The position numbers and the translations under genes are program-made. Below the pieces are notes generated by a model. The model did not search any database. It was not told where the DNA came from and saw only the letters and a program-made list of their open reading frames with translations. 63,046 nucleotides of DNA, taken from positions 1 to 63,046 of the IMG/VR virus record IMGVR_UViG_3300028891_000010; one strand, given 5' to 3'. Below, piece by piece: positions 4,082 through 61,542 of the stretch (positions within the stretch are counted from its first letter, which is position 1; every line of letters begins with the position of its first letter). The DNA comes from a virus. Lineage: Duplodnaviria > Caudoviricetes.

Positions 4082-6359
4082 TTGCCAGGAGTGTGCATTG
4101 AGAAAAAATAGCAAACCTATACCTGGAGAAGGACCCATACCCACCGACATAATGATCATCGGTCTAGCTCCAGGATACGAGGAGATAAAGCAAAATAAAT
4201 TGTTTGTAGGTCCATCAGGTCAAAAATTAAACAGCACGCTACAAGAGATAGGTTTAAATAGAGATCAAATTTATATTACAAACATAGTAAAATGTGCTAA
4301 TACTCCAGGCAGAAAACTATCAAAAACATTTATTAAAAAATGCAGCAGTTTATGGTTAACTAAAGAAATTGAATTAGTTCAACCTAAAGTAATTTTAGCT
4401 TTAGGACAAGACGCAAGTAGTTTTTTTGGTAAAAAATTTGTAGTCAATAGTTACTTTTACAATAACAATTACAACTGCTGGATAGTAGTTACACATCATC
4501 CTGCAAGACTGCTAAGAACATATAACGACAAACTACATCAAGAACTTAAAATGGCGTTTATTATAGCAAAAAATTTACTGCATCAGTCTAATTCTAGTGT
4601 AATAAAATCTAACGCACAATACATTGAGAGTATTAGTATTGACGCTCTTAATAGATTAGGAACACTAGTGGCTATAGACTTAGAAACCACAGGACTAAAC
4701 TTTCTTACCGATTCTATAAGAGCAGTAGGAGTTAGTAATGGCAATACATCAATAGGATTTCCTTTTAACGAACAAAATAAAAAAGTATTTCAAGAGTGGT
4801 ATAGGGATAAATCTTTTATACTTCATAATGCTAAATTTGATTATAAATTCTTAAAGAAAGAAGACATTAAAATAGCAGTACATTTTGATACTAAATTAGC
4901 TCATTCAGTTATTGACAGAGACTCTCCTAATGGCTTATCTGAATTAGCCTTAAAATATTTACACACCAAACTAACTAAAGGAACTATTGATTTTGACGAT
5001 GCAGGTTATTCTAATATAGATGCAAAACAGTTATCTATTTATGCTGCTAATGACGCTTTTATGACTTATAAAATATATGAAATTCTTAAACCTATGATAG
5101 ATGTAGAATACAAGTTTGTGTATTACAACATCACTATTCCAACTATGTTATGGCTAGCAGATGCTGAATTTAGAGGAATAAAGGTAGATAGAGAAGAAAT
5201 TAAAAAAGAATTAGCTTATATGAAATTTAAACTAAAATCAATTGAGTCTGATATAAATAATCACCCTGTTGTTAAAAGCTATCTTGCTAAGAAAGGATTA
5301 AATAATCTTAATCTACGCTCACCTAAACAGTTATCAGAATTGTTATACAAGCGCTTGCAGTTACAATGCAATGATAAAAATACTTCTGAAGCTACTTTAG
5401 AATATTTATCTGAAAAATATCCTCAGTATACGTTTATAAAACAAATAGTAGAATACAGGCATTATTTTAAAGGATTTAGAACTTACTTAGAAAATCTATT
5501 AAAATTTAGTGAAGTGGATGGTAGAGTCCACCCTGACTACTCTCAGACTCGAACTTCAACGAGTCGTCTAGCTTGCCGTTCTCCAAATTTACAAAACATA
5601 CCTAAGTCAGCAGAGATATCAAAAATCATAAGAAAATGTTTTGTTGCTACTGAAGGCTATGTATTAATGCAAGCAGACTTTTCTCAAGCAGAGTTCAGAT
5701 GTCTCGGTCACTATTCAAAATGCTCCAATTTAATTAGACTAATAAATGAAAAGAAAGACATACATAGAATGCTAGCATCACTAGCATATGGTAAAGCTGA
5801 GTCGGAGATAAGTGACAATGAGAGAACCATTGCAAAGACCATAACTTTTGGAATAATGTATGGTCGAGGTGCTAAGTCTATAGCAGAGCAGTTTGGCATA
5901 TCTATTGAAGAAGCTCAGAAAATAAGAAATCTGTTTTTTGAAACTTTTCCAGAAGCTACTAGATGGATGCAGAAAGCTAAGGAATTTGCTAAGAAATACG
6001 GATTTGTTAAGACGTTAACAGGAAGAAAATTACCTTTGCCTAAAATATTTTCTAAAAACGAAGAAGAGGCTGCGTATGCAGGTAGATGCTCCGTAAACTA
6101 TCCTATACAGTCTACTGTGGCAGATATGACTAACCTTGCTGGAGCACTAATACATCATGAGTTTAAAAAACAAGGATTAGATGCTTATTTATTATTAAAT
6201 ATTCATGATGCTTTGGTTATAGAATGTCATAAGTCTGCAGTAGATAAAGTAAAAGAGCTGGTTATGGACATAATGAAAAATAAAGTTAAAGAGATTTTAA
6301 AACTAAGAGTAGATTTAGATGTTGATGTTAAAATAGGTAAAACACTTAATTTAGAATGA
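4056..6359 (+). CDS. polA: family A DNA polymerase with N-terminal uracil-DNA-glycosylase-like domain and 3'-5' exonuclease
   Basis: UDG-like CQEC..GEG..GLAPG..FVGPSG..TNIVKC..HHPA; exonuclease DLETTG, HNAKFD, YAAND; polymerase DFSQAEFR, KTITFGIMYG, IHDAL. Confidence 0.95.
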   Translation: MDLVPQVNNCQECALRKNSKPIPGEGPIPTDIMIIGLAPGYEEIKQNKLFVGPSGQKLNSTLQEIGLNRDQIYITNIVKCANTPGRKLSKTFIKKCSSLWLTKEIELVQPKVILALGQDASSFFGKKFVVNSYFYNNNYNCWIVVTHHPARLLRTYNDKLHQELKMAFIIAKNLLHQSNSSVIKSNAQYIESISIDALNRLGTLVAIDLETTGLNFLTDSIRAVGVSNGNTSIGFPFNEQNKKVFQEWYRDKSFILHNAKFDYKFLKKEDIKIAVHFDTKLAHSVIDRDSPNGLSELALKYLHTKLTKGTIDFDDAGYSNIDAKQLSIYAANDAFMTYKIYEILKPMIDVEYKFVYYNITIPTMLWLADAEFRGIKVDREEIKKELAYMKFKLKSIESDINNHPVVKSYLAKKGLNNLNLRSPKQLSELLYKRLQLQCNDKNTSEATLEYLSEKYPQYTFIKQIVEYRHYFKGFRTYLENLLKFSEVDGRVHPDYSQTRTSTSRLACRSPNLQNIPKSAEISKIIRKCFVATEGYVLMQADFSQAEFRCLGHYSKCSNLIRLINEKKDIHRMLASLAYGKAESEISDNERTIAKTITFGIMYGRGAKSIAEQFGISIEEAQKIRNLFFETFPEATRWMQKAKEFAKKYGFVKTLTGRKLPLPKIFSKNEEEAAYAGRCSVNYPIQSTVADMTNLAGALIHHEFKKQGLDAYLLLNIHDALVIECHKSAVDKVKELVMDIMKNKVKEILKLRVDLDVDVKIGKTLNLE

Positions 6360-41356: not shown

Positions 41357-41366
41357 AATTGAAAAC
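41357..41366 (-). promoter_or_regulatory. late-gene motif GTTTTCAATT
   Basis: Just upstream of the SD of the gene starting at 41341. Confidence 0.65.
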
Positions 41367-43024
41367 TATACTTTACTATAAAAAACTCTATGAAGATGTT
41401 TAATACTATTTATAGCGTTAAGACTAGTATCACCTATATAGTTTGGATCAATAGGTCTAAAGCCTTCTATAGAAAAGTGATAATCCCACCATTCTTTAGG
41501 CTTTAAGTTAATGTGAGTTTTGTCTATATCGTTATCAGCCTTTGCTATTTGATTTTCGTAGCCTAATACTAGAAACAGATATAACAAACATCCTTTTTTA
41601 CACACTCGTTTAAGTTCTTTTACAAGTAATGGTACTAATTCTGTTGGTAAATGCTCTAAAACTTGCTGAGAATAAATCAGGTCAAAATAGTTATCGGGAA
41701 ACATACGAAGGTCATGTATTGAAGAAACAAATAATTTATTTTTTAAATTTAGTTTTTCTTTTCCTACTTCAATAGCATACTTAGATATATCAACTCCTAT
41801 AAAATCTTTGTTTCTCTTATTCACTAAATAAACAAAATAACCTCCACCACAACCTAGCTCTAACCCTCGCTTAAAAGGGACTTTAGATATCATATCCGCT
41901 AAAACTTTTTGTACTTCGGTTTTAACTACTGCGTTACTATAATTAGATTTAGTCTTTCGAGTCCAGTACTCCCTATCAAAATAACTAGTTATTTCTTGAA
42001 GTTTGTTGTGCCCATACTTGGCTTGAAGATGTCTATAAAAAAAAGATATAAAAAGCTTTTCACAGTCCTTTAGCTTACTCTCGTTTATAGTAGCTCTTTC
42101 AAAGCTGCATTGTAATGGGTTGTTTAAAAAATCTTTGAACTTATATACTTTAAGACCTAAGTATTCTAATATGGTAGATCTACTATCTATTAGAATGTGA
42201 ATGGTAGGTACTCCAAACACAGTAGCTAGAACAGAACCATGAACTCTAAGAGATATTACCTGATTAGCATGAGAATATAATTTAACTAAAGATTTAGGAT
42301 CATTTACACATATAATATCTGGAAAATACTGCTTAAATATATAGTAATCAGTTAAATCATGTGCTATGTGTAAAATAGGTCTAGTTCTATCCAGTTTCTG
42401 AGATAGTATTTTTAAACTCTTTGTAATTCTACTATTCCACTTCCCTAGATTTTTTACTACCACTAAGTTAACAGACTTATTTTCAAATTTAATACCGTAA
42501 TAAAAGGGAGTATAACATACAGAATCATAAAGTAAAAAGTTTTGTATGTCACATTCATCTAAAATTTGTTTGGTTATGGGGCTCCTAGAAATTATCAAAT
42601 CATATACATTAAAGTTTCCTTGTATAAAGTCTCTATGACTGCCTACTATAGTATTGATATTTTTATAGTTCACGGAATCTTGATTTACTATACCTATCCA
42701 TAAGTTAGCGATTCTTTTATTGATTTTCTTAGCTAATCGAAGTTTATCGTAAAAAGGCCTGTTAAAATATACAGGTATTTTATGACTTAGCTGAGGAGTA
42801 CCACATAGTATAATATAATCAATATCCTCTATAAGTTTTAACCACTCGTTATTATCCATTTTGTACACATTAAAAATATTAGCATATCGAAATATAGGAA
42901 AATTGCAGAGCTCTTTTTCTGCTTGTAGTATTAAATATTCTATACCTTTACCTATTAGAATGTCTCCTGGATTTGGATTTTCATAACTAGTATCTGTGAT
43001 TAATAAATATTTTCTAATATTCAT
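41366..43024 (-). CDS. polysaccharide pyruvyltransferase-like domain fused to class I SAM methyltransferase
   Basis: NPGDILI, GTPQ, SLRVHGSVLATVFGVP; LELGCGGG, GVDIS, FDLIYSQQVLEH. Confidence 0.8.
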   Translation of the reverse strand: MNIRKYLLITDTSYENPNPGDILIGKGIEYLILQAEKELCNFPIFRYANIFNVYKMDNNEWLKLIEDIDYIILCGTPQLSHKIPVYFNRPFYDKLRLAKKINKRIANLWIGIVNQDSVNYKNINTIVGSHRDFIQGNFNVYDLIISRSPITKQILDECDIQNFLLYDSVCYTPFYYGIKFENKSVNLVVVKNLGKWNSRITKSLKILSQKLDRTRPILHIAHDLTDYYIFKQYFPDIICVNDPKSLVKLYSHANQVISLRVHGSVLATVFGVPTIHILIDSRSTILEYLGLKVYKFKDFLNNPLQCSFERATINESKLKDCEKLFISFFYRHLQAKYGHNKLQEITSYFDREYWTRKTKSNYSNAVVKTEVQKVLADMISKVPFKRGLELGCGGGYFVYLVNKRNKDFIGVDISKYAIEVGKEKLNLKNKLFVSSIHDLRMFPDNYFDLIYSQQVLEHLPTELVPLLVKELKRVCKKGCLLYLFLVLGYENQIAKADNDIDKTHINLKPKEWWDYHFSIEGFRPIDPNYIGDTSLNAINSIKHLHRVFYSKV

Positions 43025-44346
43025 AGCTTTTTAAGATATTTAACGATTGTTTCTGGTTTAATTGACCTCATACAAGCGTCTTTAATTCTATTACATAGGC
43101 ATTTATCAGGATCTATGCTTTGACGATCATCACATTTAAAGCAAGGTACACTAGGTCTAATAGGTATGCAATTTTCATAAGTAGAGCATCTCCATTCTGG
43201 TCTAATAGGTCCAAATAAAGCTACTGTTTTTTTATCAAATGCTCCTGCTATATGTAAAACACTAGTATCTACTGTTATAACGTAATCTGCTTGTTTTACT
43301 ATAGCAAATAGCTGTCTTATATTAGTTTTTTTCTGTAAATTAATACAGTTATGAAAATCAAATTCTTGCGTTCCTACTACTATGGGAGTGTAACCTTCTG
43401 ATTTCAGTAAGTTAATAAGTTGTTGAGTTAAATCTGAAGGATACGTTCTGTTGGAACCTACTGCGTACCAACATATAGCAACTGTGTTTTTGTAGTTTTT
43501 TAGTAAATCCCTAGCATGTTCTTTTTCTTCGTCGCTGAGTACTATAATTGGTTTTTTAATCAGTAAGTCTTTGGGATTTAAACCACATAAATAAGCTGTC
43601 GAATAAATTCTATGTTGCCTATTATAAAACTGTTTATAATTGCTTAACCGATATGATAATATAACAAAGCTGTGATATTGATGGATAGGAACATCTTGTC
43701 TTAAATAATAAACTTTGTCTATAAAGTCTAAATTATCAAAAATACACATTCTATTTCTATCCACTATATAGGAAACTTTCCAACCTTTCTTATGCAGTGT
43801 ATAAGCAGCAGGTAAAGACATTAATACGTCTCCTAATCCGTCAAAGGTTTCTATTAAAAAGCGTTTGTTTTGTTTTAGGTCTTTTTTAATAGATTGTAAC
43901 ATAGGTAATTCGTCTGGAGATTTAATCACTGGTAAGATAAAGCCCCAGTGGGTAGCAAATAGTTTAGCTACCTGTCTAGCTCTTGGAGTGTCATTACTAA
44001 AAACAGCTTTAAAAACAGCTGGGTTTTTAAACAATAAATGAGAAAACCATCTAAAATCCGTTTCTATATAAATTATATTATCGTGAATTATACGATTATC
44101 AGGAAGTTTAGTGCAGACGTATATTATTCCTATATTGCGTCTTAAGATAGATTTGATAAATTTAACATCTAATTTTTTACCATAGTGGTGAAATCCAAAA
44201 CCCACTATATAATAATCGCAGTCTAAAGGTAGGAATACAGAAGTTCCTGTACTGGCATATAAGAACTTATGATTTGTAACGGATTTATAATAAGTAGTAA
44301 CTGTATGCCAATTTGGATTATGAGCTAAATATAAAATGGGAGACAT
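43021..44346 (-). CDS. glycosyltransferase family 9
   Basis: GLGDVLMSLP, RTYP, ITVDTSVLHIAGAFDKKTVALFGP, CM.SI. Confidence 0.85.
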   Translation of the reverse strand: MSPILYLAHNPNWHTVTTYYKSVTNHKFLYASTGTSVFLPLDCDYYIVGFGFHHYGKKLDVKFIKSILRRNIGIIYVCTKLPDNRIIHDNIIYIETDFRWFSHLLFKNPAVFKAVFSNDTPRARQVAKLFATHWGFILPVIKSPDELPMLQSIKKDLKQNKRFLIETFDGLGDVLMSLPAAYTLHKKGWKVSYIVDRNRMCIFDNLDFIDKVYYLRQDVPIHQYHSFVILSYRLSNYKQFYNRQHRIYSTAYLCGLNPKDLLIKKPIIVLSDEEKEHARDLLKNYKNTVAICWYAVGSNRTYPSDLTQQLINLLKSEGYTPIVVGTQEFDFHNCINLQKKTNIRQLFAIVKQADYVITVDTSVLHIAGAFDKKTVALFGPIRPEWRCSTYENCIPIRPSVPCFKCDDRQSIDPDKCLCNRIKDACMRSIKPETIVKYLKKL

Positions 44347-44399: not shown

Positions 44400-45386
44400 T
44401 TATGAATTAGGATTATACAGAGCAACTATTCCTTCATAAGTTCCAGAAGAGTTTTTCAAAACAGGTTTAAAATCTACTTCTTCAGCAATAATGATTCTCT
44501 TCTTGAACTCGTCAACTAAATCTTTTGTTCTGAAAGCCACATTCTTCCTAATTCCAATGATGAAAGCATCTTTTCTAACTAACACTGCACAGTTTCCAGC
44601 ATACTTATCGTCAAGATATGTGGTCTCTAAAACTTTAACTCCTAAAATCGGAGGTAGATGTCCTGTCTTCAAAACATCAGTATCTACACGATACTCTTGA
44701 CTGTAGACTCTATCAGTCTTTCTTAAGTTAGTAGCAAACTTAGAACCACATACCAACACTAAATTCACTGGCTCTTTTCCGTAAACTCCCAGAGCATTCT
44801 TAGCATCTGCGATCTTATCTACTAAATTATCAGAGCTAGAAAAAGTAATTGGAGATGTGGCCGCTGCTAAGGTTCCCTCTCCCTTAGCTACTGTCCAGAT
44901 ACCATCGAAAGCTTTATCATATGTCTGATTCCCAGATGCATAAACTCCTTTAATCATGGCGATCTCTTCAGCAGCCGCTAACTGAGTAGTTAATGTCTGT
45001 CTGATGTATTTAGCCAAGTCCACGATTGCTGTTTCGAGATCATCTTCAATAACATCAACATAAGCTACTAAGAGTCTAGGAGTTAAGATTACTGAACCAG
45101 TGCTGAATGTTTGCTCATTAAGAGCAGATGCAATGCTAGTCCCATACCCTATAGTCTTAACGTTATTAGAACCGTAAGTAAGCACAGGAATAGTAAGGTT
45201 TCTAGCACTCTTAGGAACCTGAATGCTAGGAAACAAACGTCTGATGATATTTTTCTCTTTAATCTCCTCAATAACCTTCTTAGCTATGGGGCGAGGAAGA
45301 TCATCACCACTAGGAGAATCCAACTGACCTAAATCATCTGCTTTAATTAAATCCAATAATTTTTTCTCAAGATCCTTTTTATTCAT
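44400..45386 (-). CDS. major capsid protein (HK97 fold)
   Basis: 328 aa; LP.PIA..VIE.I; LAAAEEIAMIKG; FDGI; follows the protease; SD AGGAGGTG. Confidence 0.9.
   Translation of the reverse strand: MNKKDLEKKLLDLIKADDLGQLDSPSGDDLPRPIAKKVIEEIKEKNIIRRLFPSIQVPKSARNLTIPVLTYGSNNVKTIGYGTSIASALNEQTFSTGSVILTPRLLVAYVDVIEDDLETAIVDLAKYIRQTLTTQLAAAEEIAMIKGVYASGNQTYDKAFDGIWTVAKGEGTLAAATSPITFSSSDNLVDKIADAKNALGVYGKEPVNLVLVCGSKFATNLRKTDRVYSQEYRVDTDVLKTGHLPPILGVKVLETTYLDDKYAGNCAVLVRKDAFIIGIRKNVAFRTKDLVDEFKKRIIIAEEVDFKPVLKNSSGTYEGIVALYNPNS
45285..45344 (-). repeat. capsid N-terminal segment KADDLGQLDSPSGDDLPRPI, second copy at 49850-49909
   Basis: 20 bp identical (45325-45344 vs 49890-49909); 14 of 20 residues identical. 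Confidence 0.9.
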
Positions 45387-45408: not shown

Positions 45409-45936
45409 TTACTTTCTCTGTATGTATTTTAAGAACAGTTCGTCTACGTCCTCTTCGCTCTCTTTTTTCTCTTCTTTTTTAATGTCTTCTTTCTTAATAA
45501 CAGATTTCTTTTCGGCTACGACCTCTATTGTTTTAACCTTCTCTTTAACCAACTTAATTAAATCATCTAACTTTTTAGAAATTTCTGCAGTAGCTTCTCC
45601 TAGCTTATCCAGCTTCTCAAGTATGTCTTTACCATAGTAGTAATAATAAGGTTTAGTTGCATCTTCTTCCTTTTTTTCTTCTAGTAAGTCTTTAATTTCC
45701 TCTTCAGATAAATCTTTGTTTTCTTCTTCATCCTTGTTGCCTGTATCTTCTGATTCCTGCTTCTCCTCTTCGTGTTTTGAATCTTCTTGTTTGTGCTCTT
45801 CTTTTTTCTCTTGCTCTTCATCCTTAGATTCGTTTTCCTTAGTCTCAATTTCTTTCTTTTCTTCTGTATCCTTTTTTTCCTCTTCCTCTTGTGTTTGCTC
45901 TAATTGTTTCTGTTCTAATTTTTCCTTATCTCCCAT
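45409..45936 (-). CDS. nested scaffold protein from an internal in-frame start
   Basis: AAAGGAGGTGAAGGT-ATG at 45936, in frame with the protease. Confidence 0.6.
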   Translation of the reverse strand: MGDKEKLEQKQLEQTQEEEEKKDTEEKKEIETKENESKDEEQEKKEEHKQEDSKHEEEKQESEDTGNKDEEENKDLSEEEIKDLLEEKKEEDATKPYYYYYGKDILEKLDKLGEATAEISKKLDDLIKLVKEKVKTIEVVAEKKSVIKKEDIKKEEKKESEEDVDELFLKYIQRK

Positions 45937-46488
45937 ACCTTCACCTCCTTTATATAGATTCTCTAAGGCCTTTACCAATGACAATACTCGTGCTCCTGGA
46001 TTAGCTGGAACTCCTACAAAGGAAACCTCGTACAGTTCAATCTTTTTAATAACATGAATTTTATCAAAAGGACAGTCTTTATCAACCAAACCTCTCCTAA
46101 TAGCTTCATCTTTAGTAATAGTCTCATCGTCTATTACTCTCCCACCGATAGAAAGCTTACTAATAATACCTTCTTTAAGTTTAATTCTCAATTCCTTAGC
46201 CCAGGAACTTATAAATATTTTAAGTTTAAGGCCGATATCATCAACTGTGGATTCTACTATTCTTCCTACTGCGTTTTTTAAATCATAATTATGACCATAA
46301 AAAGCTGTGCTATTTACATTAACTAAATGTTTAGAGGCTTCTCTCAAAGCATCTGCAATTATGATATCACCTTGTCTATCTAGTGCAGTAGTAGATGCAT
46401 AGCACTCTACGTAAAAATCAGTATCTTCTGTACCTTCTGACTTTAATATATCAGCATAAAATTTAAATATCTTTTTAGACCTAATCAT
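45409..46488 (-). CDS. HK97-type prohead protease fused to acidic scaffold
   Basis: YASTTALDRQGD, YGHN, LSIGG, LYEVSFVGVPANP; Glu/Lys-rich C-terminus. Confidence 0.9.
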   Translation of the reverse strand: MIRSKKIFKFYADILKSEGTEDTDFYVECYASTTALDRQGDIIIADALREASKHLVNVNSTAFYGHNYDLKNAVGRIVESTVDDIGLKLKIFISSWAKELRIKLKEGIISKLSIGGRVIDDETITKDEAIRRGLVDKDCPFDKIHVIKKIELYEVSFVGVPANPGARVLSLVKALENLYKGGEGMGDKEKLEQKQLEQTQEEEEKKDTEEKKEIETKENESKDEEQEKKEEHKQEDSKHEEEKQESEDTGNKDEEENKDLSEEEIKDLLEEKKEEDATKPYYYYYGKDILEKLDKLGEATAEISKKLDDLIKLVKEKVKTIEVVAEKKSVIKKEDIKKEEKKESEEDVDELFLKYIQRK

Positions 46489-46523: not shown

Positions 46524-48362
46524 CTAAATATGGAAATTTAAATATTTATATAAACTACTATATATTAACTCTACGTCTTCCAAAAGTATAATATCTATAT
46601 TTTTCTTTTTGCCTCCAAAGTAGTGTTCTTCATACTCTCTTTGCTTCTTTTCTTTAGGCTTATAACATATCCAAATTCTCCTACCTCCTATAGGAGCATA
46701 CATAAATACTATCCAGTCATTAAGAAGTTTTCCTTTAAATTTAAATAATTTAAAATGTCTTCCGTGAGGAGAAGTCTGCCTTCCTGCAAACCACTCTCCA
46801 TAATCATGTCTCCAGAAGAAAGCATATGCATTAGGAGTGCTTCCTATACTATTTGGTGAAACTACAAATGGTTCTTTTGCTCCTATATTTAGCCAACTAT
46901 TATGTACTACAAGCAAACCTGTTAAAAAGCTTTCATCCTCTTCTACCTGAAAATCGTAAAGTCTGATAGAAGTTTTGGAATTGTTCTCTAAGCTTTTTTT
47001 ATTGATAGAATAATACCAGAAATTCTCATCTTCTTCTTTTGGAGAGCTATAAGAACATACTTTTTTGTGAAACTCTACTATGTACGTTGTGTGTTTAGGA
47101 ATTATGGTATGTTTTTTATTAAGTCTGATAATCTCATTTGTATGTTTGGTATCTATTTTTCTTAATGTTGGATAATAACCTAAGCGCATTCCTATATACA
47201 ACACTTGCCCTATTAGATGTCTAGAAACTGATGTGTAACTATAAGCATCGTAAGTTTTGATGTTTTTCAACTTAGTCCCGTCGCTATCCATTAAACCTTT
47301 AAAAACAGCTTTTAGTTTATTATCAGGTAAATATAAAACCCACGAAGGTAGTTTTTTGAACCAAGATTTATATCCTAATCTATGAAGTTCTTCTTTAGAA
47401 GCACAATAGCAGTTCTCCTTTAACCACGTTACTAAACCTGAATCATAAAAACGTAAACTAGGATTTGTATTATAACAGACTCCTACATGATCTACTTTGA
47501 ACAGTTTTTTAGTTAGTTGTATAAGTTTATTAGCCTCATCTGTATTAGCACATTCTATACTAACTCCATGGCTTGCCATGTAAGTAGAACTTTTGCTAGA
47601 GATATTATGCGATGTGCTTACGTGACCATCTCCCACATAAAAACCTAACCAATAGCAGAAGTCTTCATTCACTGGAACTCTTTTAGTATATCCTGGAGGT
47701 ATAGTTAATTCTATATAATTAACATCTTTTATTTCAGGTTTAGGTTTAGGTAACAATAGTAAATCTTTGCTAGGACTAATCTCTCTTTCTAATTTTAAAC
47801 CATCTTTGGTAAATATACGGTGGTTGTTAAAATATATAGCAAAGTTACTACCATCAGGTTTTATATAGCAAAATCTATTTGATACTCCTTTTTCCATTAC
47901 TTTATCTTTAAACTGATTTCCAGGAGTAGTCCAGTGGCCTCCTTCAAAGTAAGAAGCTAGTTTTTTCTTTTTAGGATCTGTATAAGGAACTAGTCTTAAG
48001 TCTTGATGTATGCTTACTGGATCTAATAAAGCTATGATGTGTTTGATTTCTTTAGGTAAAGATTTAAATTTTTCTTCGTCTTTTAGTACTTTATCAATTA
48101 ATTTAGTTAGTTTCTTAGAACTTTTACCTTCTTGAGAGGCTTCTTTTATAGCTGATTTCCAGGAAAAGTTATAGTGTTTTTCAACTTTTTCTATTTTATT
48201 ACTATCTAAAAAATAATCTCTATCTAAACCAAACTTTTTCATATCAGATTTAGTAATATAGTCTATTAATTCAACTCTTACGCCACGTATATGAGTCTGA
48301 ACACAGTATTTTCCTGTCATGCCTTCTTCAATTGTCCATTGACCTGTATTTACTTTTATCAT
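46524..48362 (-). CDS. LigD 3'-phosphoesterase-like protein containing an intein
   Basis: VQTHIRG, IHQDLRL, HWT, DYGEW, FKFKGKLL..W follow the LigD PE motif order; central intein motifs. Confidence 0.6.
   Translation of the reverse strand: MIKVNTGQWTIEEGMTGKYCVQTHIRGVRVELIDYITKSDMKKFGLDRDYFLDSNKIEKVEKHYNFSWKSAIKEASQEGKSSKKLTKLIDKVLKDEEKFKSLPKEIKHIIALLDPVSIHQDLRLVPYTDPKKKKLASYFEGGHWTTPGNQFKDKVMEKGVSNRFCYIKPDGSNFAIYFNNHRIFTKDGLKLEREISPSKDLLLLPKPKPEIKDVNYIELTIPPGYTKRVPVNEDFCYWLGFYVGDGHVSTSHNISSKSSTYMASHGVSIECANTDEANKLIQLTKKLFKVDHVGVCYNTNPSLRFYDSGLVTWLKENCYCASKEELHRLGYKSWFKKLPSWVLYLPDNKLKAVFKGLMDSDGTKLKNIKTYDAYSYTSVSRHLIGQVLYIGMRLGYYPTLRKIDTKHTNEIIRLNKKHTIIPKHTTYIVEFHKKVCSYSSPKEEDENFWYYSINKKSLENNSKTSIRLYDFQVEEDESFLTGLLVVHNSWLNIGAKEPFVVSPNSIGSTPNAYAFFWRHDYGEWFAGRQTSPHGRHFKLFKFKGKLLNDWIVFMYAPIGGRRIWICYKPKEKKQREYEEHYFGGKKKNIDIILLEDVELIYSSLYKYLNFHI
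46899..47905 (-). mobile_element. LAGLIDADG intein, N-terminal block A not recognisable
   Basis: Block B NNHRIFT, C WLGFYVGDG, E FKGLMDSDG, H TSVSRHLI, F LYDFQVE, G VVHN|S. Upstream boundary approximate. Confidence 0.85.
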
Positions 48363-49627
48363 GACTTTAACCTAGCAGCTAGATTCTTAATGGTTTTTAA
48401 TATGTAAGGATACCCACTTATTTCTTTGTCAAAAGACTTGTTAAAGCTAAATTTGTCATGAAGGTTTTTTATCTCTCTCAAGGACTGTTTTAGAAGCTCT
48501 AAAGTAACCTTTTTACCGTTACTCAGTAAGAAAGATCTAACTATAACCTCTTTCAGATGTGCAGGAGTTAATCCTTCAGATATCCTAGCAATACATGCAA
48601 GAGATTTTTTCTTATTTTCTATATCTATATTTTCACTGTATCTCCAAAGAATTTTAAATCTAAGAACTGCATCAGGTAGCTTAAACTCAATAATATCGTC
48701 AAATCTTCCAGGACGATCTATTAAAGTTTTGGGAAGCCTTTCAGGAAAATTAGTAGTTAGTATAGTTAGTATTCCTTCGTTAGGTACCAATCCATCCATC
48801 TGAGTCTTAATAGTGTCTAGTGTTGGTCCTTGTAAGCATCTATCAATGTCCTCTATAAAAAGTATTGACGGCTGTAACTCTCTAGCCATATCGAATAAGT
48901 AGGAAGTTTTCAAATGCATAAAGTCTGTTGCAGTTACCCATATAAAAGTAGCGTTTTTAACAGTATTCATTATAATTTTTCCTGACAAGGTTTTTCCAGT
49001 GCCAGGAACACCTGAAAAAATAACACCTCGTTTAAAAGGAATATTTGCTTTTTCATATTTCTCTTTGTGATTAAAGAAACTAAATACTGTGTCATTCAGC
49101 TTTTGAAGAGTACTCTTATCTAGAATTATCTTATTACTATCTATACTGGATAATGGTAAGAATTTTCCAAATGGAGTTATTTTTTCGTTCTTCCAAGGAT
49201 TATTATTATTGACGAAACGATGAATGTCCTTTACAAAGGAATCAATAAACGAGTAGTCCTTATCTCTACCATAAATAACAAGCTTTTGACAGTCAAAGGC
49301 AGGGTAAAAATGAATTACCAAAGGAACAGTGTCTTTAACGATAATAAACCCACTTACTAATAACCTTTCTTTAGTGTCTCTACCTACTTCAAGCAGTTCA
49401 TAAGTAGCGGGAACGTATGTTTCGTTATACTTTAAATTAATTATCTTCACTTCTTTTTCTTTCACTGCATTTTTTAGTCCTTTAGAGTAAAGAGCTACCT
49501 TATAAAAAGGAATCTGGATATCCAAACGAGTCTGACCGAAAACATCTACTCCTAAGATTTTTTCTAAGACTCTATCTAGCAAGCTTTTAGAACCCATGCC
49601 TTGGGGTAACTGAATTTCCTTTTTCAT
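48359..49627 (-). CDS. AAA+ ATPase from an internal in-frame start (422 aa)
   Basis: AAAAGGAGGTATAGAG-ATG at 49627, in frame with the long ORF. Confidence 0.55.
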   Translation of the reverse strand: MKKEIQLPQGMGSKSLLDRVLEKILGVDVFGQTRLDIQIPFYKVALYSKGLKNAVKEKEVKIINLKYNETYVPATYELLEVGRDTKERLLVSGFIIVKDTVPLVIHFYPAFDCQKLVIYGRDKDYSFIDSFVKDIHRFVNNNNPWKNEKITPFGKFLPLSSIDSNKIILDKSTLQKLNDTVFSFFNHKEKYEKANIPFKRGVIFSGVPGTGKTLSGKIIMNTVKNATFIWVTATDFMHLKTSYLFDMARELQPSILFIEDIDRCLQGPTLDTIKTQMDGLVPNEGILTILTTNFPERLPKTLIDRPGRFDDIIEFKLPDAVLRFKILWRYSENIDIENKKKSLACIARISEGLTPAHLKEVIVRSFLLSNGKKVTLELLKQSLREIKNLHDKFSFNKSFDKEISGYPYILKTIKNLAARLKS

Positions 49628-52600
49628 CTCTATACCTCCTTTTGATATTAACAATTCACAAAGAGGAGCTCTGTTAATAATTGTATAAGAGTTAATTTTA
49701 TCAGCTTTAACTCTCTGTAGCTTGCCTCCACAAATAGGACATATTAAATTGTTAGGAAGTTCTTCATCGCTATCTATAGTATAGTCACACTTTTCACATC
49801 TATAAACGTATTTAGGTTTTTCTTTAGAAGGTTTTGTAGGTTCTGTAGATACAGGCCAAGGTAAAGGATCACCATGAGGAGAAGTTATTTGACCTAAATC
49901 ATCTGCTTTTAATAAAGCTTCATAAAAAGACTGTGCTTTTTCTACACTCATTCTATCTATAACTAAATAACTATCAGGCTCTTTCTTATTGGGTTTAAGT
50001 GTAATAACTCTACTCTGAAAAAGAGTATAACGAATTTTGCTGTTAACTTTTTCTTTTTTATACTCAGTAGCTGCTATGTTTAATATCTGCCCTACTTCAG
50101 CCTTGATCTCAGTATTAAAGGTTTTTCCAAGAACTCCATACCATTTACCGTTTAGCTCTTTTATAGGTGTAAACAAGTCTTTTTTATCTTGAGGTATTCC
50201 GTAACCTACTGTGTAATTATAAACATTTTTATTTTTGACTTTGTGAACTTCTAAGACTATTGTATCTGCCTCATAGCTATACTTCGCTTTTACCCATGTC
50301 ATAGTCTTACCATCTAACTCATAAACTCCACTATAAGCTTTTATCATTAATCCATCTATTCCATTTAATCCTCCTAAACGATAAGATCCTAAGTGATGCT
50401 TTAAATAGTTAAATTTCTTTACTAATTGTTCTTTAGTCTTAATATCAAATCCAGGACATAGTACAAAGTGCTTTTTGAATTTTTTAGAGACCTCTTTTAA
50501 AACTTTTAGTCTTTCCGATAAAGGTTTATTGTGTAAATCTTCTCCATTGTAATAAAGAATGTCGAATACAAATACTCTAACATTCTCATCAGATCCTGGT
50601 TTTTTAGCTTGAGACCACTTCATTAAATCGTGTCTAGATAACCATCTATTTTTATTAGGATCCCATTCCATTAGTTCTCCATCTAAAATAATACCTGAAT
50701 CATGTAAAGTTGATAGTTCTTTAACTAAACTAGGAAGCTTACTTGATACATCTTTCATAGCATCTTCAAAGTAGATTAAACTTTTTTTGTTAGCATCTTG
50801 AGAAGCAATCATTCGAAAGCCATCAATTTTATATTCTGCTCTAACTTTACCTTCTTGCTCTACATAAAACTTACAGAAGTACTCCCAAGCTTCTTCTGGA
50901 TCAAAGTATTCAAGTTCGTGGTAAGAGCTAGCGGTTGCTTTCAAAGGAGGAAATCTCATAAGAGGTTTAAGCTTTTTGTCTTTTTGGATAGACTTACCTA
51001 CTCCAGGTCTATCACATCTTCTCATTTCTCCATTGCACCGAGGACACTTAATATCCTTACAGTGGTTATCAGATATCATCTTATAGCCGCAGTCTAAACA
51101 CTCACAGCAGAACTTCTCTTTTTTGAAATGAAGTATAAATTTACCATCGTAGTATCTAAAAGTAGCTGGTCTTATTATAACTGCGTCGTATTTATTTTTA
51201 ATTGAGCTTAAAAAACTCCACAGTTTACTCTTTTTAACTATCCATCTAATAGGCAAATAAAAAGGTCTATCTGCTTTGTTTAACCATTTCTTGTGCATGA
51301 ACAATAATCTATTTATAATGATTTCTTTAAATAAGTTATCGCTTCTATACGCTAACAAGTCAGTAATAATCTCCTTATTATTATCCGTTATTACATGCTC
51401 ATAAATTAGTCTGTTTTTCTTATCAACTACTATTCCATGCTTGCCTTTGATAAGAGGCTCTATTACATACGTATCAGACTTGAAAGGAAGTTTTGGAATA
51501 ATTTTACAAGATTTATAAAATTTAGTATAGTCAGGAAGTCTAGGGTTAACTATATTGGGTGAGTCTTTTTTCTTTAATATCAAATCATATACATTTAAAA
51601 CATCACCATGAGATATCTCATTTCCTATATAGTGAGGATTGTATTTTTTTAAAAACTGTTTAATGGCTTTGTATATGACTTCTGGGGATATTATATCTAA
51701 ATCATTAGGATCACTCTTGTGTAAAGACGAACCAACAAATCTAACTATATTGCTCTTAATAACTATCTCATCCTGCAGCTCATTCCATATCTCATAAACT
51801 TTTATTTCTCTTCCTAGAATACGATATGTTTTTTTATCTAGATCATTAATTACACGATGTTTTAATCCTCTCCTAAACATTTCTTTAACTACTAAAACAT
51901 GAACTTGAAGAACTTTATTAGTTTTCTTAATGGCCCATAACTGATGACACCTTAAGTGAACCATTAGTAACTCTTTTTTAGAAATTTTTCTAAGTATATC
52001 GGGATTGTTTAGGATAGTATCGAAGCCCGGCTTCAAAACAAACTCGTCTCTTTGACTATATAATTTATTTAAGTCTATTAATAGCTTTTCGCCTTCTTTA
52101 GCTGTCCTTATTTCTACTATTTTACAGTTAGGATGTTCTTTTTTATATTTTTTAAGTCTTTCTTTTAATATTTTGTTGGCTTTACTAAATTCGGGCCACT
52201 GATTTCCCATTCCAGTAAACAGAGTATATTTATTATTTAGACTTAGTATGAAATCTAAATGTTCCAATACAGCTACATGATTATTCAAAGGTATTTGATG
52301 ATCCCAGTAAGCACCATCTAAAATAGCTAAGATGTTATTAGAAAAATACTTAAGTTCATATTCGTCCCATATTGGACCTCCATCTGACATATATACAAAA
52401 ACGTTATCTATATTATAAGCAACAGTAGGAAAACGAGGATCGTGAAATACTTTTAAAGCTTTTATAGTGTGATCTACTATTTTGAAAGGTTTTTTAGTAC
52501 CAATAGGAACAAATAAATAGTTGCTATAGGATTTTTCAGACCATCTTAGTTTAATTCTTTCAAAGACTTGAGGTAAAGCGTATAGTTCGACTGTTTTGTT

Positions 52601-52846
52601 ATTTTCTTCTAAGAATTTGTTAAAAGTTGGTATTCCGTCTACTGCATCAGAGTGAAAGTGACTAATTAATACATGAGTCACATCTAAAAGCTCTTCTTTA
52701 GTTGCTTTTTCTAATATATCTTTACCTACATCTATCAAAATAGTAACGGGAGGAGATATGATAAGACAAGAAGGCTTATACTTTCCTAAATAAGACTTGG
52801 GAGGTTTGGTTGTTTCTGCTCCTGTTCCTAGTATTTTTATAATCAT
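48359..52846 (-). CDS. 1495-aa multidomain protein: MBL-fold hydrolase, NTase-like, Zn ribbon, ATP-dependent DNA ligase, capsid-like peptide, Zn ribbon, AAA+ ATPase
   Basis: ILGTG, SHFHSDAVDG; VGS..DLD; EYKIDG, ILDGEL, VFDILY, DGLMIK, WVKAK; GVPGTGKT, FIEDID, TTNFP, RPGRFD. Confidence 0.85.
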   Translation of the reverse strand: MIIKILGTGAETTKPPKSYLGKYKPSCLIISPPVTILIDVGKDILEKATKEELLDVTHVLISHFHSDAVDGIPTFNKFLEENNKTVELYALPQVFERIKLRWSEKSYSNYLFVPIGTKKPFKIVDHTIKALKVFHDPRFPTVAYNIDNVFVYMSDGGPIWDEYELKYFSNNILAILDGAYWDHQIPLNNHVAVLEHLDFILSLNNKYTLFTGMGNQWPEFSKANKILKERLKKYKKEHPNCKIVEIRTAKEGEKLLIDLNKLYSQRDEFVLKPGFDTILNNPDILRKISKKELLMVHLRCHQLWAIKKTNKVLQVHVLVVKEMFRRGLKHRVINDLDKKTYRILGREIKVYEIWNELQDEIVIKSNIVRFVGSSLHKSDPNDLDIISPEVIYKAIKQFLKKYNPHYIGNEISHGDVLNVYDLILKKKDSPNIVNPRLPDYTKFYKSCKIIPKLPFKSDTYVIEPLIKGKHGIVVDKKNRLIYEHVITDNNKEIITDLLAYRSDNLFKEIIINRLLFMHKKWLNKADRPFYLPIRWIVKKSKLWSFLSSIKNKYDAVIIRPATFRYYDGKFILHFKKEKFCCECLDCGYKMISDNHCKDIKCPRCNGEMRRCDRPGVGKSIQKDKKLKPLMRFPPLKATASSYHELEYFDPEEAWEYFCKFYVEQEGKVRAEYKIDGFRMIASQDANKKSLIYFEDAMKDVSSKLPSLVKELSTLHDSGIILDGELMEWDPNKNRWLSRHDLMKWSQAKKPGSDENVRVFVFDILYYNGEDLHNKPLSERLKVLKEVSKKFKKHFVLCPGFDIKTKEQLVKKFNYLKHHLGSYRLGGLNGIDGLMIKAYSGVYELDGKTMTWVKAKYSYEADTIVLEVHKVKNKNVYNYTVGYGIPQDKKDLFTPIKELNGKWYGVLGKTFNTEIKAEVGQILNIAATEYKKEKVNSKIRYTLFQSRVITLKPNKKEPDSYLVIDRMSVEKAQSFYEALLKADDLGQITSPHGDPLPWPVSTEPTKPSKEKPKYVYRCEKCDYTIDSDEELPNNLICPICGGKLQRVKADKINSYTIINRAPLCELLISKGGIEMKKEIQLPQGMGSKSLLDRVLEKILGVDVFGQTRLDIQIPFYKVALYSKGLKNAVKEKEVKIINLKYNETYVPATYELLEVGRDTKERLLVSGFIIVKDTVPLVIHFYPAFDCQKLVIYGRDKDYSFIDSFVKDIHRFVNNNNPWKNEKITPFGKFLPLSSIDSNKIILDKSTLQKLNDTVFSFFNHKEKYEKANIPFKRGVIFSGVPGTGKTLSGKIIMNTVKNATFIWVTATDFMHLKTSYLFDMARELQPSILFIEDIDRCLQGPTLDTIKTQMDGLVPNEGILTILTTNFPERLPKTLIDRPGRFDDIIEFKLPDAVLRFKILWRYSENIDIENKKKSLACIARISEGLTPAHLKEVIVRSFLLSNGKKVTLELLKQSLREIKNLHDKFSFNKSFDKEISGYPYILKTIKNLAARLKS

Positions 52847-57375: not shown

Positions 57376-57558
57376 CTATTTACCCCACTTCAAGTAGCAA
57401 AACATTATTACTACAAGTAAAAAATAAATAGCATTAATTATCTTTGTGGATCTATGGTTGTGAAGGTGATTAGTAAAATGCTTGTCTAGATTCTGTAATT
57501 TAACCTCTAAGACAGCAATTCTTTCTAAAATCTCTACAAAATACTTCTTAACGTCCAT
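57376..57558 (-). CDS. small coiled-coil plus TM protein (holin-like)
   Basis: ILERIAVLEVKLQNL..TNHL then a C-terminal TM; SD GGGAGG. Confidence 0.55.
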   Translation of the reverse strand: MDVKKYFVEILERIAVLEVKLQNLDKHFTNHLHNHRSTKIINAIYFLLVVIMFCYLKWGK

Positions 57559-58813
57559 TTAAATTCCTCCCATTATTGAAAACTTTAAAAAGTGCACTCA
57601 AGATGGAATTAAATCTCACTGTATGTAGGCAGTTTTGATTATTAGTTTTAATACATTCTGCTTTATTAGCATCTATCGCCTCATTGCAACAATAGCAAGA
57701 TACTTTAGGTATTAATGAAACTACATTATCATACGCTCTCCATTTATGGTAAATAGTAGATGGTAAAAATACTGTAGGCTTATTAAAAGCAGCTGCTATA
57801 TGTAAAGTAGATGTGTCTACTGTTAGTACTAAATCCGAACTGTATGCTACTGAAAAAAATGTTCTAATATCTAATTGACCTGTTAAATTTAGGCAATTAT
57901 TATAGGCCTTTCGATTGTATCCAGTAATTACTACGTTAAAACTTTTAGACAAATAATCAATCAAAGGTTGTTGCATTCTATCAGGATAGCTTCTTCTCAC
58001 ATCAAAAGATTCAAAAGTAATAAGCAGCTTAGGACTTTTAACACCTTTTAAAAGAGTTTCACCTTTTTTTATTTCATCTTCTGTAAGTATAATTTCTGGT
58101 TTACTTATCACTAGTTCGTCGTTTTTTAATCCACACATATTAGCAGTAGCATAAATACGGTGTTGCCTGCAGACTAAATTACTATAATTAGATAATTTAA
58201 AACTTATATCATAAAAACGCTTGTAAAATAACAGACTAAATTCCTTGGGATTGGTATATATACGATTTATATAAGGTAGATTTTGCAAAACTACTTCTCT
58301 TCCAGGCCATACTAAAAAGTCTACAGTGTAACCTTTAGAGTAATAAGTTTTAGCTGTGGGAGTGCACATCAGTAGATCTCCTATACCATCGTAAGTTTTA
58401 ATTAGAATAGCCTTACTAATTAGTTTTTTAAGAGCAATTATTCTTTCCAGATCTTTTAGTTTGTATATCTTTAATCCTGTGAATTGACTAAATGCATTCG
58501 CTAATACTTTACCTTTCTCTCCTACTCCATAAACTGCTTTAAATATAAACGGATCCATAAAAAGAGTATGTATATACCAGTGAGAATTAACATGAATTAT
58601 AGCAAGTTTTTTATCTGAAATAGGTTCTCTGGTATCTAAGGTAACTATTACTACTGAGATATTATTATTTAGTATATTTTTAACTTTAGACACTAAGTCT
58701 TCATATAGTAGATCTGCAAAAATTAAGACTACTGCGTCTCCATCTATACTAAAACATCTATCTCTAAATGGCTGATTAATTTTAACCTTTTTTGTTATTA
58801 GCTCTACTTTCAT
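57548..58813 (-). CDS. glycosyltransferase family 9 (second paralogue)
   Basis: GIGDLLMCTP, RQHRIY, RSYP, LTVDTSTLHIAAAFNKPTV. Confidence 0.85.
   Translation of the reverse strand: MKVELITKKVKINQPFRDRCFSIDGDAVVLIFADLLYEDLVSKVKNILNNNISVVIVTLDTREPISDKKLAIIHVNSHWYIHTLFMDPFIFKAVYGVGEKGKVLANAFSQFTGLKIYKLKDLERIIALKKLISKAILIKTYDGIGDLLMCTPTAKTYYSKGYTVDFLVWPGREVVLQNLPYINRIYTNPKEFSLLFYKRFYDISFKLSNYSNLVCRQHRIYATANMCGLKNDELVISKPEIILTEDEIKKGETLLKGVKSPKLLITFESFDVRRSYPDRMQQPLIDYLSKSFNVVITGYNRKAYNNCLNLTGQLDIRTFFSVAYSSDLVLTVDTSTLHIAAAFNKPTVFLPSTIYHKWRAYDNVVSLIPKVSCYCCNEAIDANKAECIKTNNQNCLHTVRFNSILSALFKVFNNGRNLNGR
57574..57583 (-). promoter_or_regulatory. late-gene motif GTTTTCAATA
   Basis: Upstream of the SD of the gene starting at 57558. 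Confidence 0.65.
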
Positions 58814-59623: not shown

Positions 59624-59942
59624 CTTGATTTGCCTCCTTTTGAGCAGGTTGTTCGTTAGTAGTTTCGGTTTTCTCGTTTGGCGAAGACGGCACTTTATTA
59701 GGGTCATAGTAACCTGGTGGAGTCTGAGGTTTTACTAGTTTACCCGATAGTTCTTTAGAATAGTCTTTACTAACTTGTTCTTTAAGTTGTTCTAATAAAG
59801 AGACTACTTCCATTAGATAGTAAGAAGCTTTTACTATTAATTTTCGATGCTCTCTATAAGGTGAATAAAGTCTCCATAATATTCTCATTAAATGATCAGC
59901 TTTCTTCAGTTGTGTCTCTATACGTCTCGGTGTTAGATACAT
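59589..59942 (-). CDS. hypothetical protein
   Basis: 117 aa; SD GGAGGT. Confidence 0.55.
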   Translation of the reverse strand: MYLTPRRIETQLKKADHLMRILWRLYSPYREHRKLIVKASYYLMEVVSLLEQLKEQVSKDYSKELSGKLVKPQTPPGYYDPNKVPSSPNEKTETTNEQPAQKEANQDDSKKEDQEST

Positions 59943-61542
59943 CTTCTACCTCCTTCAAACTTATCTTTTCCTGTTCTTCATTTATATTAACGCCTTTTAG
60001 TTTAGCAAATTTCTCTGTTAATTGGCCCCAAAAAGATATAGCGTTAAAATAAAATCTAACTTTTCTTGTTAAAGGTGATTCATGTATTATATGTCTAGCT
60101 ATTTTACCATTTCTTAACCAATAGCCTCCTGTATTGGTGATAATTATAGTAGTTACTGCGTCAAATGAATTGACTCCTAATTGATACAAAGTAACTATTC
60201 TTTCTGGATTACCTACTCCAAATCCATGAACAAACTGTATTTTATTCTTTATCTCTTGAAATTCTTTGCTTTTAGTTACATAAGATATCCATTCTACTTG
60301 GTTTTTTAAAGATGTAGTAGCTATACCTCCAAATGCTAATGCTATGTTGTCCTGTTCAAATATCTTTAAATCTATGTATCTTTTTAAACACTCTAGATAT
60401 TCCTCTTTGTTGTTGCCTTGTAATACGAATACTTTAGTAGTTTTAAATGAGGGCTTCCAGTCTCTGAATTTAATAGCATTTTTAATAGTCATGTCTACAG
60501 CCTCTTGAGGTGTGATTTTCCAGTGCTCAAATAAGAATGGAAAGGTAGGTATGTCTAAAGAAGTGCATATTTCTGGTTTAATATTCTCATAAAACGCTAT
60601 TAACTCATCTATTTTAGAAAAGAAATCCCACTGTTTATGCTTCATGCAAGTAAACGCTCCACAATCTAGAAATAATCCATCTAACTTATCTCTATTTAAC
60701 AGGACGTTAGAGAACTGCTTTGCTATACCTCTATCGTGCATAATTGTAAATGCACTATATAGTAAACGTTTACTTGGTAAATATTCTATATCTCTAGCGT
60801 CAAATCCGTAGTCTCCTATAAAGTGAAATCTTAAGTCGCTTGGTACTATCTGCTCTTTTATATCAAATCTACCCGCTTTTCCTTTACGTTTTAATACATC
60901 CTCCACACTTATTCCTAGTCTTTCAGCTATTTCATAGGCATTGCATATTCTATTTACATAGTGTTTAACATTGGTCCTCTTTATTTCTTCTCTTTCCAAC
61001 TTCCGCAGCAAATTAAGTTTTTCCATCTTATTAGGTAATTTCTTAATCCACACGAATGCCGCTAGTGTTAATACTCCCTTATTAACGTACTCTTGTATTT
61101 CTTCTGGTTCCTCCAATATAGACATAATATTACTTATATTAGATACTGATTTACCTGTGACCTTGGATAAGTCCTCTAGTTTGTAATTAAATTGTTCTTT
61201 TAGATACTTATAGCCCCTAGCTTCCTCCAGTAGAGTTAGATCCTCTCGCTGTATGTTCTCTAATAGAGTTAACTCGTATGCCGTCTTATCATCACACTCT
61301 ATTACCCTTGCTTTTATATTGTCCCTTTTTAGTATCTGGTGTGCTCTATATCTTCTCTCCCCTGCTATTATAGTATAATTATTTTCCCCTATTTTCCTAA
61401 CTACTATAGGTTGTAGTAATCCATTTAATTTTATATTTTCGGCTAATTCTCTTAATTTAGTCTTATCAAAATTAATTCTTGGTTGGTAGGGGTTTCTATG
61501 AATTTGATTTAAGGGAAGGTTAAATACTCCTAAATCTTTCAT
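59896..61542 (-). CDS. ParB/Spo0J domain fused to TGT/DpdA-like domain
   Basis: NPYQPR..GLLQPIVV..IIAGERRYRA..ENIQREDL plus HTH; then FLDCGAF, SLDIP, VLQG, AFGG, VHGFG, NSFD. Confidence 0.85.
   Translation of the reverse strand: MKDLGVFNLPLNQIHRNPYQPRINFDKTKLRELAENIKLNGLLQPIVVRKIGENNYTIIAGERRYRAHQILKRDNIKARVIECDDKTAYELTLLENIQREDLTLLEEARGYKYLKEQFNYKLEDLSKVTGKSVSNISNIMSILEEPEEIQEYVNKGVLTLAAFVWIKKLPNKMEKLNLLRKLEREEIKRTNVKHYVNRICNAYEIAERLGISVEDVLKRKGKAGRFDIKEQIVPSDLRFHFIGDYGFDARDIEYLPSKRLLYSAFTIMHDRGIAKQFSNVLLNRDKLDGLFLDCGAFTCMKHKQWDFFSKIDELIAFYENIKPEICTSLDIPTFPFLFEHWKITPQEAVDMTIKNAIKFRDWKPSFKTTKVFVLQGNNKEEYLECLKRYIDLKIFEQDNIALAFGGIATTSLKNQVEWISYVTKSKEFQEIKNKIQFVHGFGVGNPERIVTLYQLGVNSFDAVTTIIITNTGGYWLRNGKIARHIIHESPLTRKVRFYFNAISFWGQLTEKFAKLKGVNINEEQEKISLKEVEDVSNTETYRDTTEES

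Follow-up and report, generated by a model that had tools for sequence, protein, structure and literature searches.

Prohead proteases cut several head proteins at related sites. Close comparisons for the locus described here are the capsid proteins HK97 gp5 and T5 pb8 with their proteases, gp4 and pb11, which share with it the S78 protease family, the capsid fold and a cut, putative in the present locus, made after a lysine and before a small residue at the start of the N-arm. In T5 the part removed by pb11 is an N-terminal scaffolding domain (PMC5292684). In T4 the capsid targeting sequence (CTS) of the internal proteins and of Alt is a short and portable peptide; it takes unrelated proteins into the prohead, is removed by gp21 and also carries foreign proteins (PMC3012670, PMC7411985); it is N-terminal, 10-20 residues long and removed after loading (PMC7411985). 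Here we analyse a 63,046-nucleotide stretch of DNA from an uncultured tailed phage (IMG/VR record IMGVR_UViG_3300028891_000010, positions 1 to 63,046; hereafter the window), in which the peptide at the capsid protein's putative maturation junction recurs inside a DNA ligase-AAA polyprotein. We read this peptide, with slightly better than even confidence, as a portable prohead-protease cleavage junction, perhaps serving as a docking element too.

The two peptides, the open reading frames (ORFs) that carry them and the protease presumed to recognise the motif are as follows.

49850..49909, minus strand: motif copy KADDLGQITSPHGDPLPWPV, residues 980-999 of the 1495-residue ORF, in a disordered linker after the ligase region; putative cut K980/A981.
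48359..52846, minus strand: 1495-residue multi-domain ORF comprising a metallo-beta-lactamase fold, a middle region with a zinc finger, an ATP-dependent DNA ligase, the motif, a zinc ribbon, a Bcs1/YjoB-like N-domain and AAA.
45285..45344, minus strand: capsid N-terminal motif KADDLGQLDSPSGDDLPRPI, residues 15-34; putative maturation cut K15/A16.
44400..45386, minus strand: HK97-fold major capsid protein, 328 residues (Pfam Phage_capsid, E 2.3e-16; PDB profile matches are T5-type capsids).
45409..46488, minus strand: S78 prohead protease (residues 1 to ~185) and E/K-rich scaffold with a conserved C-terminal tail in one ORF, directly upstream of the capsid gene (Pfam Peptidase_S78, PF04586, E 2.3e-11; PHROG head maturation protease).

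A first-pass annotation had reported the peptide pair, and its positions and residue numbers proved exact: 14 of the 20 residues are identical, and the contiguous 20-nucleotide match that it described (AAAGCAGATGATTTAGGTCA) is present. This run occurs at only two sites in the window even with up to two mismatches allowed, and 0 of 100 shuffles matched. BLASTP aligned the polyprotein with the capsid protein at 18 of 33 identities (E = 2e-7), and a six-frame scan of the whole window gave no other 20-mer scoring 25 or more against either peptide, where the pair itself scores 76. Over 22 residues the two share 14, 11 of them with the same codon. The copy does stand right after the ligase domain, as had been claimed, with Pfam DNA_ligase_A_M covering residues 664-855 and the zinc ribbon starting at 1011. 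That both proteins have a methionine 14 residues before the motif is coincidental; the helix there is that of the ligase C-terminus, and it is present in the relatives L003 and L004 where the motif is lacking. Nor did we count a weak K-x-D-x-L-G-E stretch in the window's scaffold, which forms part of a conserved coiled coil and gave no score with the motif profile.

The capsid peptide has the features of a maturation junction. A motif L-x-D-L-I-K-A-D-D-L-G-Q ... L-P-[KR]-P stands at the N-terminus of all 27 capsid homologues (43-100% identity), with K15, L19 and G20 invariant and with alanine in most at P1', the residue after the putative cut. The nearest solved capsids are T5-type (T5 pb8, E 4.9e-14 by HMMER). 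The T5 precursor has 458 residues and the mature chain 299, a difference of 159, and residues 159/160 are K/A. Residue 14 of mature T5 pb8, at precursor position 172/173, aligns with positions 27/28 of the capsid profile, and extending the HMMER alignment ungapped by 13 residues places T5 K159/A160 exactly on K15/A16, with GQRHLK/AVNQSSSVEVSSE lying over LLDLIK/ADDLGQLDSPSGD of the window. In HK97 gp5 the cut is at K103/S104, the mature chain in the PDB (1ohg_A) consisting of residues 104-385, which bears out the earlier statement that the HK97 protease cleaves its capsid protein after lysine. In all three capsids a P1 lysine, the residue before the known or putative cut, is followed by a small residue. 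In the AlphaFold model of the window's capsid protein, K15/A16 sits between a helix on the propeptide side (residues 3-15) and the N-arm helix (32-45), and the predicted local distance difference test score (pLDDT) is below 50 at residues 16-26. The proposal that K/ADD is the capsid maturation site is well supported by this homology. A comparison of the capsid profile with HK97 gp5 by hhalign returned a probability of 1.8% and no usable alignment, and the HK97 comparison is confined to the residues at the cut site.

Six-frame translations of the window and 25 loci (280 kb) were searched with a capsid N-terminal profile. It matched every capsid protein, and outside capsids only four proteins (E 3e-9 to 5e-7); in a smaller search set the next-best match had an E-value of 0.11, and no search gave a better one. 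Database homologues of the AAA protein of L012 carry further copies in P0032 (KEDDLGQLDSPSGDDMPRPVTS), P0033 and P0034 (KADNLGQVPDATGSRYLPKPS, which lacks the zinc ribbon), and P0035 carries none. Among 153 proteins of the AAA N-domain family the motif is confined to P0031-34, and among 54 homologues of the protease-scaffold it occurs in two, P0184 (the L005 protein) and P0213. The copies, with their E-values where the profile search found them, are placed as follows.

Window polyprotein (E 3.2e-7): between ligase and zinc ribbon-AAA.
L001/L007 polyprotein (E 1.9e-7): between ligase and zinc ribbon-downstream domain.
L012, stand-alone 652-residue AAA protein (E 3.4e-9), with P0032 and P0033: between an N-domain and zinc ribbon-AAA.
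P0034: between a metallo-beta-lactamase-fold and middle region and AAA.
L005/L020 protease-scaffold (E 4.8e-7): in the middle of the scaffold.
P0213: at the very end of the protease domain.

Every copy sits between modules, and the placements fall into at least three separate kinds, AAA-linked, mid-scaffold and at the protease-domain end, which lends support to the suggestion in the first-pass annotation that the peptide is portable. The positions in relatives are internal (residues 86, 201, 549 and 410). In five of the six non-capsid contexts the similarity begins exactly at the lysine, and the residues upstream are not conserved: A/E-D-[DN]-L-G-Q is preceded by LLK, KNK, IAK, FFK or TEK in the AAA-linked copies and by EEK in the L005 scaffold. 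Across the six AAA-linked linkers the residues K, D, L, G, Q, G, P and P are invariant, and the flanks cannot be aligned. In L005 the similarity runs on into the N-arm helix (LPKPIAEEKVVEEI against LPKPMADKVIEEI). An all-against-all scan for short capsid/non-capsid similarities inside 43 loci recovered two cases only, L001/L007 and L012, since those of the window and of L005 did not pass its filters; the same scan, with those filters, gave no analogous copy in the distant AAA-bearing phages L026-L042.

In principle the duplication could lack any function and be a scar left where the capsid gene and a nearby gene underwent recombination or gene conversion. The 20-nucleotide identity and the shared codons in the window agree with such an event, and the region, with its inteins, zinc-ribbon inserts and domain shuffling, is prone to recombination. 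However, AAA orthologues whose overall identity is just 53-58% still have the copy, although the linkers on either side of it cannot be aligned. In L012 the copy shares 18 of 22 residues with its own capsid protein, but only 9 of those 18 have the same codon; synonymous sites have diverged while the residues were kept, a pattern of constraint at the protein level. L001 retains 20 of 20 residues after an apparent loss of the AAA core, and the motif has at least three separate placements. The scar reading is already disfavoured, and we regard it as highly improbable.

The domains of the polyprotein around the motif are these.

52214..52744, minus strand: metallo-beta-lactamase-fold domain, residues 35-211 (Pfam Lactamase_B_2, E 1.6e-10).
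50282..50857, minus strand: ATP-dependent DNA ligase adenylation domain, residues 664-855 (Pfam DNA_ligase_A_M, E 1.9e-27).
49709..49816, minus strand: zinc ribbon downstream of the motif, residues 1011-1046 (Pfam; folded in the AlphaFold model, pLDDT ~86).
48362..49627, minus strand: AAA core, residues 1074-1495, with an N-domain of ~200 residues and an AAA domain (Pfam AAA, residues 1275-1389; AlphaFold pLDDT ~90).
49625..49640, minus strand: internal Shine-Dalgarno sequence AGGAGGT (49634-49640), 6-nucleotide spacer and ATG (49625-49627, M1074) before the AAA core.

In relatives the ligase region stops at the equivalent of about residue 978, just before the motif, and the pair of motif and zinc ribbon is common to L001, L012, P0032 and P0033. 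AlphaFold gives pLDDT values below 50 over residues 966-1009 and of 33-39 over the motif, with a helix at 970-981 that runs through K980, so in the model the motif lies in an accessible flexible linker directly behind a helix. The AAA core has its best Foldseek matches in YjoB (7w42_B, 430 columns) and Bcs1 (9gs2_A, 420 columns), and YjoB is also matched by sequence (E 1.3e-20); the module is Bcs1/YjoB-like, with one classical AAA domain after a Bcs1-type N-domain. Stand-alone AAA homologues (L019 and P0036) begin at the position of M1074, which, with the internal ribosome-binding sequence, suggests that the AAA core may also be translated alone, giving nested long and short AAA products. Searches of Pfam and PDB sequences returned no family for the post-ligase domain of relatives (residues 990-1290 in L003) or for the middle region, and a LigD phosphoesterase-like domain found no support.

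Two kinds of insert were seen in these proteins. A zinc-finger cassette of ~40 residues, C-E-C-L-x-C-G ... C-P-x-C-G-G-E-M-R-R-x-D-R-P-G-x-G-K-S, precedes the ligase in the window (~50990-51110, residues ~580-620) and recurs inside the AAA domain in L012:709-2667 (residues ~395-437) and P0032, at 62% identity over 40 residues. It resembles a mobile mini-insert, and further zinc ribbons are dispersed among the head-module proteins. LAGLIDADG intein-like inserts occur at differing sites in the window (46524-48362, ~residues 154-487), L001:3-3314 and L004:3964-8847: within the post-ligase domain in the window and in L022, ending ...VVHN/S, and within the ligase in L001 and L004, immediately after the KxDGWR motif.

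The similarity to the capsid, its conservation, the several contexts, the disorder and the match in position to the T5 and HK97 cuts together point, in our judgement marginally in its favour, to a movable cleavage junction. The motif would be a copy of the capsid maturation junction, made up of the P1 lysine and about 20 of the first residues of the mature N-arm, and would function as a short linear motif sited in the disordered linkers that join the folded modules of head-module proteins. Its reader would be the partner that reads the capsid junction, most likely the phage's S78 prohead protease. Cleavage at K980/A981 would split the beta-lactamase-fold/ligase part (residues 1-980) from the zinc-ribbon/AAA part (981-1495), and the latter would then start with ADDLGQ..., as the mature capsid protein is predicted to do. 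Because prohead proteases act inside the procapsid, the polyprotein, or at least its AAA part, would have to enter it; the motif may assist in this, being both cut and docked as T4 targeting sequences are. The copies in the protease-scaffold proteins of L005 and P0213 resemble release or maturation sites. A wider proposal is that the junction has become a movable load-and-cut tag that brings a DNA-ligase/nuclease-fold polyprotein and a Bcs1-like AAA protein into the procapsid, where they would be cut into working parts, so that DNA-repair enzymes and an ATP-driven chaperone would travel in the virion. This we offer tentatively, as a possibility that we think doubtful. Were it true, self-copying would have given the HK97 lineage a counterpart of the T4 targeting sequence, and nature would offer a design by which proteins can be loaded into HK97-fold shells.

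Several observations weigh against a cleavage junction. The shared stretch on the prime side of the lysine, ~20 residues through LP[KRW]P, exceeds a typical protease site and hints at binding. The copies do not conserve positions P2-P5, where the capsids are hydrophobic, and in P0213 the spacing from K to DLGQ differs. The internal ribosome site means that the AAA protein could arise without cleavage. A hand alignment with HK97 anchored on the RRL motif moves the equivalent site by ~7 residues, which leaves T5 as the main basis for placing the exact bond. Homologous polyprotein or AAA genes have no copy in L003, L004, L016, L017, L019, P0035, P0036 and P0043, and the whole records of L003 and L004 hold one motif each and no AAA; the copy is therefore dispensable. 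The first-pass annotation had held that relatives lacking the copy would count against it, and on this the record is mixed, as L001, L012 and P0032-34 have kept theirs. The co-variation that it proposed to test holds at the level of two capsid subtypes and no finer: in the three known copy-capsid pairs on which the comparison is based, the cognate capsid ranks only 5th of 30 (window), 3rd of 30 (L012) and 14th of 30 (L005). A complex prediction of the protease domain (22-row alignment) with the linker (6-row) scored 0.00 against a mark of 0.32; its controls were not run and we use it neither for nor against binding.

The length of the conserved stretch is what one would expect if the copy were a docking element only, never cut, that mimics the first part of the N-arm and so attaches the ligase-AAA protein, or the scaffold in the case of L005 and P0213, to the inside of the capsid shell or to whichever partner that segment has. 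Its reach to the N-arm start, and in L005 into the N-arm helix, suits this view, as does a motif modelled as disordered and accessible; and where relatives fuse the AAA module straight to the protease or scaffold, a tether would serve the same job. Yet in most copies the similarity sets in precisely at the P1 residue of T5 and HK97, a start that pure docking would not require. The scaffolds already have a conserved C-terminal tail of the capsid-binding type, and a second tether in L005 and P0213 would be less economical than a cut site; free sites would probably also be scarce, each capsid subunit bringing its own N-arm. We consider docking without cleavage unlikely.

A shared partner other than the protease might also read the motif. 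The Bcs1/YjoB-like AAA protein might take the capsid N-terminus as substrate, with its own copy as a tethered pseudo-substrate, or a GT9-like glycosyltransferase encoded beside the capsid gene might use the motif as acceptor or dock. Five of the seven distinct protein contexts place the motif directly upstream of the AAA core; in the window, L001, L002 and L026 the gene just after that of the capsid is GT9-like; and most variants have S/T-P or T-G in mid-motif. However, AlphaFold leaves the motif undocked on the AAA N-domain (pLDDT 33-39, against ~90 for the domain), and copies occur in proteins without AAA (L001, L005 and P0213). No serine or threonine is among the invariant residues (K, D, L, G, Q, G and P), and the capsid proteins P0026 and P0028 have neither of these within the motif. 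Another reader, such as either candidate, seems to us distinctly improbable, and we retain the S78 protease as the presumed one.

The AAA module itself keeps company with prohead proteases, and by sequence it appears to belong with them. The AAA N-domain family comprises 480 clusters at E <= 0.001, and 49 of the 153 family proteins examined include an S78 protease domain. In L026, protease, AAA and scaffold form one 799-residue ORF (L026:9362-11761) beside a related capsid gene; other proteins with S78 protease fused to Bcs1/YjoB-like AAA include P0037, P0039, P0041, P0045, P0047-P0051 and P0055. Besides L026, an AAA gene stands immediately upstream of the protease gene in L030-L038 (9 of 17 IMG/VR loci, four of them near-identical), and BLAST detected no protease in the other seven.

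The relatives suggest how the polyprotein came by its motif. In L003, L004, L016, L017, L018/L019 and L022 the ligase is joined directly, with no motif, to the counterpart of the window's 612-residue ORF (below); L019 has a motif-free AAA gene upstream of its polyprotein; and the motif, zinc ribbon, N-domain and AAA form a unit that is a gene or part of a gene in its own right in L012, P0032 and P0033. From this the window arrangement looks like an insertion of that unit into the linker between ligase and downstream domain, and L001 seems to have lost the AAA core afterwards, with motif and ribbon kept in frame. A separate lineage, P0043 (1788 residues), also has metallo-beta-lactamase fold, ligase and AAA in one protein, with no KADDLGQ-type motif at its ligase-AAA junction; a search of IMG/VR found no loci related to it. 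In P0038 and P0054, judged by eye, a ligase-like stretch appears to lie ahead of the AAA module.

Set beside HK97 and T5, only 15 residues precede the site here, against 103 and 159 there, the scaffold is fused to the protease, and the junction sequence occurs in non-capsid proteins as well. We know of no junction copies in HK97 or T5, though no search for them was made. A C-terminal piece of HK97 gp4 reportedly targets proteins into proheads. The T4 CTS binds the scaffolding core and is discarded, whereas the motif here is internal, resembles the retained N-arm of the shell and would mostly be left on the downstream fragment; the T4 protease family and site rule also differ. As residues 980-999 of 1495, and internal in relatives too, the motif does not share the N-terminal location of a T4-type CTS and was not classed as one. 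The shared cleavage motifs of SPN3US are likewise comparable to the motif here. In 80alpha the same short Prp cleavage motif is described on the capsid protein, the scaffold and the host protein L27, and on other non-homologous phage proteins (PMC5744158). There the enzyme is a host cysteine protease and the shared part is the removed N-terminal 13-14 residues, always N-terminal, whereas here it is the retained side and internal.

Herpesvirus assemblin and P2 gpO-type proteins are protease-scaffold fusions cut at sites related to those of other head proteins, a pattern that the copies in L005 and P0213, within or ending a protease or protease-scaffold, would fit. Neither the herpesvirus nor the P2 sites are known to duplicate the junction of the capsid itself or to occur in DNA-repair or ATPase proteins. 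Encapsulin cargo-loading peptides are short and portable and load enzymes into an HK97-fold shell; they are usually terminal, bind a pocket, are left uncut and are unlike the shell protein, and encapsulins come without protease, portal or tail genes. The window encodes portal, protease and tape-measure genes and its peptide is internal, and we set aside this cargo-loading assignment. The motif is unlike known shared cleavage motifs on three counts: it is internal, it reproduces the retained side of the capsid junction, and it sits in a ligase/AAA polyprotein. Our literature search found no phage described as carrying copies of its capsid maturation junction in linkers inside enzymes and scaffold proteins. 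Should the proposed cutting or binding occur, the motif would be a sequence-readable marker of procapsid-resident accessory proteins in these uncultured phages and a candidate tag, 20 residues long, with which proteins might be loaded or released in HK97-fold shells. The Bcs1/YjoB-like AAA modules that are widespread, and unexplained, in phage head operons would also gain a second link to the protease, through a motif rather than a fusion.

The window is a nearly complete genome (63 kb, 31% GC). Its plus-strand genes include a primase-helicase, a fusion of uracil-DNA glycosylase and PolA, an SbcC-like ATPase and the portal; on the minus strand are the genes for tail and head, running from the 1495-residue ORF downstream through the 612-residue ORF, the protease-scaffold and the capsid gene to glycosyltransferase-like and head-tail genes. 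A phage collection held no close cultured relative, the best capsid matches being T5-like Vibrio phages at 27% identity, and a capsid-profile search of genome contigs found no relative. Further genes are as follows.

46524..48362, minus strand: 612-residue ORF whose homologue in relatives is the domain at the C-terminal end of the polyprotein; a LAGLIDADG (intein-like) insert interrupts it, and its start codon and the stop codon of the 1495-residue ORF overlap (ATGA).
43021-44346: GT9-like (heptosyltransferase family) gene, directly 3' of the capsid gene; counterparts at L001:5386-6714, L002:978-4202 and L026:12844-14190.
41366-43024: pyruvyl-transferase/methyltransferase fusion.
57548-58813: second GT9-like gene.

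The GT9-like and related genes make virion glycosylation possible. The C-terminal tail of the scaffold is conserved in the window (45409-45540) and 17 relatives as K-V-K-T-I-E-V ... E-K-K-[ST]-[VIL]-[IV]-K ... acidic-x-F-[LF]-K; its K-K-[ST] element might be a further cut site between lysine and a small residue, and its far end is probably the capsid-binding part. In L006:8244-9968 (= L024) the protease-scaffold ORF has an additional N-terminal region of ~190 residues, which to the eye starts like the polyproteins' beta-lactamase-fold domain, without its HxHxDH signature. Two unusual fusions were also noted: a uracil-DNA-glycosylase-superfamily domain with a family A DNA polymerase (4056-6359), and ParB N-terminal and helix-turn-helix domains with a tRNA-guanine-transglycosylase-like domain (59896-61542), the latter possibly for DNA base modification.

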